NCBI RefSeq assembly: GCF_014647935.1
Contig: NZ_BMQD01000004.1
Direction: 5' to 3' (one strand)
Source: Planomonospora parontospora
GTDB lineage: Bacteria; Actinomycetota; Actinomycetes; Streptosporangiales; Streptosporangiaceae
DNA length: 64,000 nt
This document shows, piece by piece, positions 56,608 through 57,915 of the stretch (position 1 is the first letter of the stretch; each line of letters starts with the position of its first letter). The notes beneath the pieces are model-generated. The model made no database searches. It saw nothing but the letters and a program-made list of their open reading frames with translations, and was not told where the DNA came from. The position numbers and the translations under genes are program-made.

Positions 56608-57915
56608 ATGAACCATGGGCGCCCGCGGGCCGGCCTCCCCCTCGCGGGACCCCCCGTCCTCCTCCTCGCCGTGCTCGGCCTCACCGCCCGGCCGTCCCCC
56701 GTCACCCTGGCCGCGACCGCCCTGCTGTACGGCACGGCAGTGCTCCTGACCCGCAGGCGGGCCCGACAGCGGGTCCGGTCGCTCCGGCACGCCGCCGAGG
56801 CCGTACTCGCCTCGGACGACCGCGACGCGCGCGTGGGGGCCGGTCACGGAGGCGAGCTCGGCGCGCTGGGCCGCGTCATCGACGCCATGCTCGACACGAT
56901 CGCCGCTCAGCGCGCGGAACTGGACCGGGCCGCCGCCGCGCGGGAGGAGCAGCTCCACGCCACGTACGCCGAACGGCGGCTCAACGAGCAGCAGGCCCGC
57001 GAGCGCGCCCAGAAGATGATCAACAGCAGCATCTCGGCCATCATGGGCGAGCTGGAGGTCGTGGCCGGCAAGGCCGAGGAACTGCGCGCCTCCGCCGACG
57101 TCATCGACGAGCGGGTCGGCGCCACCGACGTGCTGACCCGGCAGGTCGTCGAACGGGGGCGCCGGGCCGGTGACACCGTCGAGCAGCTGGAGGCGAGTCT
57201 CCGCGAGGTGGAGGGGATGGCGCAGGCCATCTCGAACGTGGCCGCGCAGACGCACCTGCTCGCGCTGAACGCCACCATCGAGGCCGTCCACGCGGGCGAG
57301 GCGGGCAGGGGGTTCGGCGTGGTGGCCGACGAGGTCAAGGAACTGGCCATGGCGACGACCCGGTCGACCGAGGAGATCACCTCCATCGTCCGCTCACTGG
57401 AGGCGAACGCCGGCGCCATGGCGAGCGCGCTCACCGGCATGGCCGGCGGTGTCGACGACCTCGACACGGCCACCTCGCAGGTCGGCGCCATGACCCGGCA
57501 GCAGCACTCCGGCGTCCAGCTGGTGCAGGAGTACCTCGACCGGGCGATCCGCCGGATCTCGACCATGGCGCGGCTGAGCGAGCAGCTCGAACGGCGCAAC
57601 GCCCCCCGCGCGCCGATCGGCGGCGAGACCCGGATCCGCCTGGGCGGCGGCAGCCACCCGGCACGGATGATCGACGTGAGCACCACCGGCCTCCACTGCT
57701 CCCTCCTGCCGGACAGCTCCCTCAAGCAGGGCGACCTCGTCGAGGTCGACCTCCCGCTGCCGGGAGAGCGGCCCCTGGCCCTGAGCGCGACCGTCGTCCA
57801 CCGGAGGGCGCACGACGGCACCGTGGAGATCGGCCTGCACTTCACGGACGTCCCGCAGGCGGCCGAGGACCGCGTCCACCGCTACGTCGTCGCGGCCCTC
57901 AGCGACCTCGACTGA
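56608..57915 (+). CDS. Methyl-accepting chemotaxis protein signalling domain fused to a C-terminal PilZ domain
   Basis: It has N-terminal TM segments. The MCP signalling hairpin is [40 protein letters not shown]. The C-terminal PilZ-like region has RIRLGGG...[11 protein letters not shown]...[13 protein letters not shown]. Confidence 0.8.
   Translation: [435 protein letters not shown]

Follow-up and report, generated by a model that had tools for sequence, protein, structure and literature searches.

A candidate c-di-GMP-tuned chemoreceptor without a sensor domain, encoded beside the type IV pilus cluster of Planomonospora parontospora

We found that a gene lying just after a type IV pilus cluster in Planomonospora parontospora encodes a protein of 435 amino acids (aa) that, by its domain matches, is a real chemotaxis receptor, in which the signaling domain of a methyl-accepting chemotaxis protein (MCP) is fused to a PilZ domain of the type that binds cyclic diguanylate (c-di-GMP). 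The gene occupies positions 56608-57915 (+) of a stretch of 64,000 nucleotides (nt) from contig NZ_BMQD01000004.1, and we refer to this whole stretch as the window. Planomonospora is a genus with flagellated, motile sporangiospores, and we consider it on balance probable, if only just, that this MCP-PilZ protein is a receptor in the chemotaxis array of the zoospore, tuned by c-di-GMP, lacking a sensor domain and co-regulated with the pili. We counted for this reading the domains and motifs of the protein, its rigid geometry, a conserved promoter motif, flagellar synteny of some relatives and the precedents of other MCP-PilZ receptors. Domains, geometry, promoter and synteny were computed; from these we infer function, that is, c-di-GMP binding, membership in the array, the sense in which binding shifts the output and the stage at which the gene is expressed.

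RESULTS

A PilZ domain is fused to the signaling domain of a 435-aa chemoreceptor

The reading frame of the gene was chosen by third-position GC content (GC3), which is 0.95 for the open reading frame (ORF) 56608-57915 (+) in DNA of ~72% GC, and its start codon coincides with the starts of the orthologues in the alignment. A longer ORF of 788 aa, beginning at 55549, overlaps a ricin-lectin gene in another frame; we rejected it because the orthologues begin at the Met of the 435-aa protein, directly after a conserved promoter motif (described below). Pfam comparisons yielded matches to MCPsignal (PF00015) at residues 189-298 (E = 2.9e-21; 76.5 bits vs. a cut-off of 34.6) and, C-terminal to it, to PilZ (PF07238) at residues 328-427 (E = 1.2e-15; 58.1 bits vs. 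a cut-off of 22.5). The match to HAMP at residues 48-98 was weak and sub-threshold (E = 0.006), and relatives of the protein carry precomputed HAMP matches. The named chemoreceptors of NCBIfam were matched only partially. These assignments, together with an AlphaFold2 (AF2) model, gave the following layout.

56608-57915 (+): MCP-PilZ gene with its stop codon, 435 aa (reading frame by ORF and GC3, Pfam MCPsignal and PilZ)
56647-56748 (+): membrane anchor, residues 14-47, two short hydrophobic helices and a 4-residue loop (sequence, AF2)
56749-56901 (+): HAMP-like linker, residues 48-98 (weak Pfam HAMP; the helix-connector-helix topology of the AF2 model fits)
56854-57294 (+): N-terminal arm of the signaling hairpin, a single helix, residues 83-229 (AF2)
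57247-57348 (+): hairpin tip, residues 214-247, the CheA/CheW-binding region in known receptors (conservation)
57307-57600 (+): C-terminal arm, helix 234-331, 14 heptads, running into RRxxxR (AF2)
57592-57609 (+): RRNAPR, the RRxxxR c-di-GMP-binding motif, residues 329-334 (motif scan, conservation)
57673-57690 (+): DVSTTG, the [D/N]hSxxG c-di-GMP-binding motif, residues 356-361 (motif scan, conservation)
57589-57909 (+): PilZ domain, β-barrel 339-412 and C-terminal helix 417-434 (Pfam, AF2, Foldseek)

An initial annotation, made from the sequence alone, had described a transmembrane N terminus without a periplasmic ligand domain, an MCP domain with a canonical hairpin tip and a C-terminal PilZ-like domain, and most of this description held. 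Hydrophobic segments at about residues 14-26 and 31-47 are joined by RPSP, and since this loop is only 4 residues long, there is no periplasmic ligand domain and nothing is exposed outside the membrane; the 435-aa protein has neither an extracytoplasmic nor a PAS sensory domain besides PilZ. The MCPsignal match stands above its cut-off and the tip was located at residues 214-247, where Q214, T215, L218, L220, N221, A222, E225, G230, G233, F236, V239, A240, E242, V243, K244, L246 and A247 are invariant columns across 119 sequences; in this region, 36 of 63 positions are shared with a Cellulomonas MCP. The PilZ domain was likewise upheld by Pfam and by its motifs, with one correction: RIRLGGG, which had been read as a motif element, is the first β-strand of the barrel in the AF2 model, and the RxxxR element corresponds instead to RRNAPR (329-334), where the C-terminal signaling helix ends. 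The motifs are not degenerate, a point on which the annotation had made its reading depend. RRNAPR and DVSTTG are intact, with R329, R330, R334, D356 and G361 each at least 90% conserved among 119 homologues and S358 invariant in an alignment of 20 sequences.

The AF2 model is that of a monomer, built with 119 sequences (mean predicted local distance difference test score, pLDDT, 86.5; predicted template modeling score, pTM, 0.47). It comprises a helix at 17-23 (residues 1-30 are at low confidence), a helix at 31-69 (the second membrane segment and first HAMP helix), a connector, a helix at 83-229, the tip, a helix at 234-331 ending at RR329-330, a six-stranded barrel at 339-412 and a helix at 417-434, with a pLDDT of about 95-97 in PilZ. 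When compared by Foldseek, the hairpin matched Tm14 (template modeling score, TM, 0.81) as well as Tsr and TM1143, and the barrel matched the PilZ domains of BcsA, VCA0042, MotI, YcgR, Alg44, MapZ and PA0012; the predicted barrel agrees with c-di-GMP-bound PilZ structures. The canonical, family-conserved motifs and this barrel match support the part of the annotation that had proposed c-di-GMP as the input. Judged by this domain content, c-di-GMP is the likely input of the protein and the only evident one.

A PilZ domain replaces the last heptads of the C-terminal helix

The dimensions of the signaling hairpin are nearly fixed in the family. The distance from the HAMP Glu83 to the tip glutamate is 148 residues in all homologues compared (118/118), and that from the tip to RRxxxR is 98 residues, or 14 heptads, in 114 of 116 sequences; of 78 further representatives, 72 show this spacing too. 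Two ordinary actinobacterial MCPs, which came by chance from a contig scan with the family alignment (80 mostly proteobacterial MCP loci were returned), measure 150 residues up to the tip and 133 (19 heptads) beyond it. These lengths are those of the 38H pattern, with 19 heptads per arm, and the literature pairs 38H with the F5 chemotaxis system of flagellated Actinomycetia. Compared to 38H, the N-arm is 148 vs. 150 residues and the C-arm 98 vs. 133, a comparison of lengths rather than a formal heptad-class model. Thus, with an N-arm as long as that of 38H receptors and a C-arm of 98 rather than 133 residues, the C-helix ends five heptads early and the PilZ domain is placed there. By these spacings the N-arm is of ordinary 38H receptor length, and PilZ replaces the last five heptads of the C-helix.

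PilZ-less relatives likewise end ~100 residues past the tip. The stretch of the N-arm that is left unpaired, residues 99-133, is strongly conserved (R112, E113, R131, R133, A134 and Q135). We noted two methylation-consensus-like sites (110-119 and 153-162), neither of which is kept in the family, and the C-terminal pentapeptide that serves as the CheR/CheB tether is absent from the protein, because PilZ occupies the C terminus.

MCP-PilZ relatives occur in motile actinomycetes

A Planomonospora sphaerica protein (P0001) is 99% identical to the 435-aa protein, and the window DNA is 92%-98% identical in nucleotides to that of P. sphaerica strain JCM 9374, which makes its source a close relative of this strain but not the strain itself. 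Named homologues with the same MCP-PilZ architecture come from Planomonospora, Planobispora, Dactylosporangium, Actinoplanes, Virgisporangium, Jidongwangia and Kineosporiaceae, and all of these named matches are motile-spore or motile actinomycetes. In an exhaustive search of 1.84 billion representatives, we obtained 190 clusters (50% identity) at E ≤ 1e-30, compared to 35,188 at E ≤ 1e-10; thus, the family is well delimited within the MCPs.

Most family members are 590-720 aa long and carry CHASE4, dCache or 4HB sensor domains, and the 435-aa protein is a paralogue of 680-aa receptors that contain CHASE4. The sensor-less forms of 435-447 aa from Planomonospora and Planobispora each cluster with the long forms of their own genus in a distance tree without bootstrap, and P. 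alba has one short and one long form. The unbootstrapped tree suggests that the sensor domain was lost repeatedly after duplication.

Fusions of MCPsignal to PilZ have been known since PilZ was first described, and three have been studied, all from alphaproteobacteria. In 2013, the MCP-PilZ architecture was counted in 52 of 20,681 Pfam receptors, mainly proteobacterial (PMC3604760). We found no paper on an actinobacterial member in the literature searched, and none with usable data on the chemotaxis or flagellar genes of Planomonospora or Planobispora.

A flagellar-type promoter motif precedes the MCP-PilZ gene and three groups of pilus genes

The 128 bp between the pilus cluster and the MCP-PilZ gene contain a hairpin and a motif resembling the promoters of flagellar sigma factors, and similar motifs occur at three places in the cluster.

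56495-56555 (+): GC-rich hairpin, after the last gene of the pilus cluster and ahead of the promoter motif, terminator-like without a T-run
56573-56600 (+): promoter-like motif of the FliA/WhiG1 type (sigma-28 family), CTAA-N16-CCCGATGG, ending 7 nt before the ATG of the MCP-PilZ gene
43817-43844 (+): promoter-like motif upstream of pilB, CTCA-N16-GCCGATGG
45684-45711 (+): promoter-like motif upstream of pilT, CTCA-N16-GCCGAAGA
52150-52177 (+): promoter-like motif upstream of the minor-pilin genes, CTAA-N16-GCCGATCG, conserved in JCM 9374 and P. corallina

The published actinobacterial consensus for flagellar sigma factors is CTCA-N16-17-GCCGAACT for WhiG1/FliA and T(A/C)AA-N16-GCCGATAA for WhiG2 (PMC12871210). 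A motif of the form CT(C/A)A-N16-NCCGAT ends 7 nt short of the start codon in the window, and does so too in eight further loci (L001, L002, L003, L004, L005, L006, L090 and L093) from three genera. These loci contain the orthologues of JCM 9374 and P. corallina, short forms from three assemblies of two Planobispora species, long forms from two further Planomonospora strains and a homologue from Dactylosporangium roseum, in which the motif reads CTCA-N16-GCCGAACC. The sequence flanking the motif diverges among the loci. Since the background of the relaxed motif in these loci is 0.13 per kb per strand, its chance occurrence at a fixed offset in eight loci, although these are related, is not credible. 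Under the strict criteria of PMC12871210 (CTCA-N16-17-GCCGA, ≤200 bp from the start), the motif in the window, CTAA-N16-CCCGA, falls outside. That of P. corallina is CTAA-N16-GCCGA, and in five loci, orthologous or paralogous, the -35 element is exactly CTCA and the -10 element has at most one mismatch, in the same position. A scan of the GC-rich region for promoters of the sigma-70 type yielded no sites.

The 7-nt spacing between motif and ATG would imply a leaderless mRNA. The RNA of 56470-56575 folds at -65.4 kcal/mol (z = -3.3 vs. shuffles), and the hairpin sequence is conserved in strain JCM 9374. With its own promoter-like motif and a terminator-like hairpin before it, the MCP-PilZ gene is predicted to be a transcription unit separate from the pilus cluster.

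Within the cluster, the motifs before pilB and pilT are exact (CTCA-N16-GCCGA), and that before the minor pilins is CTAA-N16-GCCGAT. These three motifs suggest at least three transcription units for the cluster in the motile spore. In Actinoplanes, such sigma factors have been reported to transcribe both flagellar and pilus genes. The motif common to the pilus genes and the MCP-PilZ gene suggests their co-expression in the motile spore, such that receptor and pili probably share a regulon but not an operon. In Planomonospora sp. ID91781, we also noted a gene for a plain HAMP-MCP (L093, 14599-16209) that lies 2.5 kb from the long MCP-PilZ and has an exact CTCA-N16-GCCGATGG motif 64 nt upstream; from this motif, other Planomonospora receptors thus seem to have a promoter of the flagellar type as well.

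In most genomic contexts examined, the MCP-PilZ gene is not linked to pilus genes

The annotation had correctly placed the gene at the end of a type IV pilus cluster, a complete one, whose genes, all on the + strand, include pilB (MshEN), pilT, pilC, a pilin gene, pilD (prepilin peptidase), pilM, pilN and pilO. Three minor-pilin-like genes close the cluster; their products are a pilin-like protein of 584 aa with He_PIG domains, a protein of 226 aa without a Pfam match and a protein of 517 aa with ricin-type lectin domains. The cluster and the surroundings of the MCP-PilZ gene in the window and its relatives are as follows.

43894-56479 (+): neighboring type IV pilus cluster, outside the receptor gene (Pfam)
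Window and P. sphaerica JCM 9374: MCP-PilZ gene directly after the pilus cluster
P. corallina: 2.5 kb from the pilus cluster, with three opposite-strand genes between
Two Planobispora species: beside sortase and acyl-CoA dehydrogenase genes
Long forms of Planomonospora, Actinoplanes friuliensis, D. roseum and one metagenomic contig: unrelated surroundings
Three Kineosporiaceae assemblies (L088, L089 and L091; 10001-11803): within a flagellar cluster, between fliQ and fliR

The linkage to a pilus cluster was seen in 2 of the 11 distinct genomic contexts that we examined, and outside Planomonospora a flagellar neighborhood was the only one in these loci that was both functional and recurrent. 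In the three Kineosporiaceae assemblies, an acyltransferase/SGNH gene and an unknown gene come after the MCP-PilZ gene, inside the flagellar export operon. Within the pilus cluster and beside it, we found no genes of the CheA, CheW or CheY type (38-64 kb of the window, and loci L003 and L006); che genes were likewise lacking beside an actinobacterial MCP (L069). Two family members have a GGDEF-EAL or PAS-GGDEF gene in their vicinity, within 5-10 kb (L005, 3227-5584; L092, 20201-21199), which may be coincidence.

The part of the cluster most divergent from JCM 9374, at 92% nucleotide identity, encodes large pilin-like or pilus-associated proteins at 52300-54054 and 54926-56479, with four He_PIG immunoglobulin-like domains and with ricin-type lectin domains. 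These He_PIG and ricin-lectin proteins are candidate carbohydrate-binding adhesins of the pilus tip. Inspected by eye, the N terminus of PilB did not display the published c-di-GMP-binding motif of MshEN, and we make no claim about it.

Other features of the window

Downstream of the MCP-PilZ gene lie genes for a trypsin-like peptidase and, on the other strand, an AraC-type regulator, followed by unrelated genes. The ~1.1 kb between the MCP-PilZ and AraC-type genes (57949-59052), which contain the ORF of the trypsin-like serine peptidase (57962-58891), are absent from P. sphaerica JCM 9374, where the AraC gene abuts the receptor gene. Further on, 60463-62077 is a variable region of lower GC (0.60-0.68) with no convincing gene call, which is unalignable to JCM 9374; at its place JCM 9374 has VapBC and a gene with LRV repeats. 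An orphan response regulator of 130 aa, with a receiver domain only (63441-63833), has a conserved counterpart in JCM 9374. On the other side, immediately before the pilus cluster, the block of genes at 29071-42132 resembles a methylation-associated defense island. It encodes two PP2C phosphatases, proteins of 210 and 740 aa without a Pfam match, a 1727-aa DUF3686/AAA ATPase, a 671-aa N6 DNA methylase (PADLOC MTase_I, 5e-91; mad2, 7e-20) and a 297-aa Ser/Thr kinase (PADLOC PD-T4-6, 2e-96; mad6, 1.5e-65).

DISCUSSION

We propose the following model for the MCP-PilZ protein. From the conserved motif, its gene would be transcribed alone, probably as a leaderless mRNA, from a promoter of the FliA/WhiG1 type, in the motile spore and together with flagellar, chemotaxis and pilus genes. 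With its canonical tip and a membrane-to-tip arm equal in length to theirs, the protein would join the chemoreceptor array of the spore, expected to be of the F5 class with 38H receptors, since flagellated Actinomycetia mostly use such systems. Its C-helix, five heptads shorter than the N-helix, enters RRxxxR in heptad register. If c-di-GMP binds between RRxxxR and DxSxxG, the geometry suggests that the membrane-proximal bundle would be re-packed at the site that elsewhere holds the second methylation helix. By analogy with Tlp1, this re-packing may bias the output of the CheA kinase, and hence swimming, such that c-di-GMP would serve as an intracellular signal resembling adaptation. That the gene adjoins the pilus cluster would then reflect a common spore-stage regulon rather than control of the pilus motor.

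We also considered a stronger form of this idea: that the family is a distinct design in which PilZ replaces the last five heptads of the C-helix (the second methylation helix) in register and c-di-GMP substitutes for methylation as the adaptation signal in the zoospore array. In the sensor-less protein, c-di-GMP would be the sole input, and the receptor could time the change from flagellar swimming to attachment by pili ahead of germination. This we regard as a tentative and somewhat doubtful extension.

Several points weigh against our proposal. The -35 element in the window is CTAA, not the published CTCA, and the -10 element begins with C instead of G. No CheA, CheW, CheB, CheR or flagellar genes were found in the 64-kb window, although CheA and CheW are expected in the genome from the motile spores of the genus and the conserved flagellar-type promoter motifs, and the literature searched contained no c-di-GMP-binding or expression data for any family member. 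The C-arm has 14 heptads, so that the protein is not a regular 38H receptor and its fit into a 38H array is only proposed. The AF2 model shows a dimeric protein as a monomer and has a pTM of 0.47, so that it is uncertain how PilZ sits against the bundle. Finally, two Planomonospora genomes have the gene adjacent to pilus genes, and a functional tie could still be the cause.

Such a tie is the core of the reading put forward in the initial annotation, in which the receptor is the input of a dedicated pathway analogous to Pil-Chp and c-di-GMP levels govern extension or retraction of the type IV pilus. The gene directly follows the cluster in the window and in JCM 9374 and lies 2.5 kb after it in P. 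corallina, the cluster encodes the PilT retraction ATPase, and receptor and pilus genes have one type of promoter. Nevertheless, no CheA-, CheW- or CheY-like gene accompanies the cluster, Planobispora, Actinoplanes, Dactylosporangium and the other Planomonospora paralogues do not show the linkage, and the Kineosporiaceae members sit in a flagellar cluster. Moreover, the gene appears to be a separate transcription unit with a hairpin upstream, and a survey of actinobacterial chemosensory systems lists F1, F5, F7, F9 and ACF but no Tfp class. Thus, while c-di-GMP remained a likely input, the Pil-Chp-like array for pilus control was not supported, given the lack of che genes at the cluster and of a conserved linkage. 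We consider that role unsupported and quite improbable; adjacency to the pilus cluster, tempting as it is, does not show pilus steering and does not imply a Pil-Chp-like pathway.

A different possibility is that the receptor, rather than tuning chemotaxis, is a c-di-GMP switch that ends the swimming phase, either because the array releases or captures a brake protein resembling FtgA or because the C-terminal helix of PilZ engages a component of the motor or pilus. Such a switch would coordinate flagellar arrest with pilus-mediated attachment before germination, and the chemosensory complex of Actinoplanes missouriensis has been proposed to hold and then release FtgA, stopping the motor. c-di-GMP generally favors sessility, the motor-acting PilZ proteins YcgR and MotI are among the structural matches, the gene is apparently co-regulated with adhesive pili, and among named matches the family is limited to motile-spore or motile actinomycetes. 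However, FtgA homologues have been reported only from Micromonosporaceae, no partner protein is encoded nearby, and the strictly conserved CheA/CheW-binding tip is more simply explained by ordinary kinase control; we judge this switch unlikely. Less probable still, and in our estimation very unlikely, is that PilZ is not a working c-di-GMP sensor and that the protein, a sensor-less paralogue left after loss of CHASE4, is a structural or modulatory component of the array with little signaling of its own. Its relation to the 680-aa CHASE4 receptors, the apparent origin of sensor-less forms more than once in the unbootstrapped tree, and the PilZ-less relatives with an equally short C-arm are consistent with this view. 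Against it, all c-di-GMP-contacting motif residues are kept and at least 90% conserved in the family, the barrel is predicted at a pLDDT of about 96, and both promoter and start site are conserved.

If the reading as a c-di-GMP-tuned array receptor is correct, its interest lies in the biology of the zoospore. Zoospore formers have the most GGDEF proteins and the largest sets of c-di-GMP enzymes in their phylum, and we found no effector linking c-di-GMP to zoospore motility in the literature searched; the MCP-PilZ family is a concrete candidate for this link. The sensor-less form is also a natural minimal construct for the effect of c-di-GMP at the membrane-proximal end of the bundle on kinase control.

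Among known systems, Tlp1 of Azospirillum brasilense is alike in that a transmembrane MCP domain is followed by a C-terminal PilZ domain with RRxxxR and DxSxxG. Binding of c-di-GMP to Tlp1 has been measured, and the receptor affects taxis (Russell et al. 2013, PMC3604760); c-di-GMP has been proposed to act on chemotaxis output in the manner of methylation-based adaptation (PMC3604760). Unlike the 435-aa protein, Tlp1 has a periplasmic sensory domain, and it belongs to another phylum and lifestyle, whereas the protein studied here would belong to the zoospore of a filamentous actinomycete, where binding is a prediction. Two further MCP-PilZ chemoreceptors, Aer from A. brasilense (PMC6406031) and Cbp1 from Azorhizobium caulinodans (PMC6454048), require the PilZ domain or its RxxxR for normal taxis, and c-di-GMP binding has been measured for Cbp1 (PMC6454048). 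Both are alphaproteobacterial, with PAS/FAD in Aer and a ligand domain in Cbp1, whereas here PilZ is the only recognizable input.

MapZ of Pseudomonas aeruginosa, whose structure matches the PilZ barrel by Foldseek, is a stand-alone PilZ protein that binds CheR1, such that c-di-GMP enters chemotaxis at the level of adaptation; it is a separate protein acting on the methyltransferase, whereas here PilZ is fused in register at the position of the second methylation helix. PilJ of the Pil-Chp system of P. aeruginosa, encoded with pilG, pilH, pilI and chpA, has a periplasmic domain. It resembles our protein as an MCP associated with type IV pilus genes, but here no genes of the pilG, pilH, pilI or chpA type were found, the linkage to pili is not conserved and PilZ is present. 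Tm14 (TM0014) of Thermotoga maritima (PDB 3G67) is the best match to the hairpin among solved structures in sequence (E = 1.7e-16) and the best in fold (TM 0.81; root-mean-square deviation 3.1 over 203 columns), and is about the same length, but it is soluble, with symmetric arms and without HAMP or PilZ.

The protein of the window thus has the MCP and PilZ domains of the Tlp1 type and lacks two features of that type, the sensory domain and the full-length C-arm; neither of the Pil-Chp features, che genes and conserved linkage, was found. In three alphaproteobacterial MCP-PilZ proteins, Tlp1 not among them, RRxxxR lies 140-141 residues (20 heptads) past the tip, as compared to 98 here. By these spacings, the helix is continued in register by RRxxxR in both lineages, and the actinobacterial design is a distinct one.

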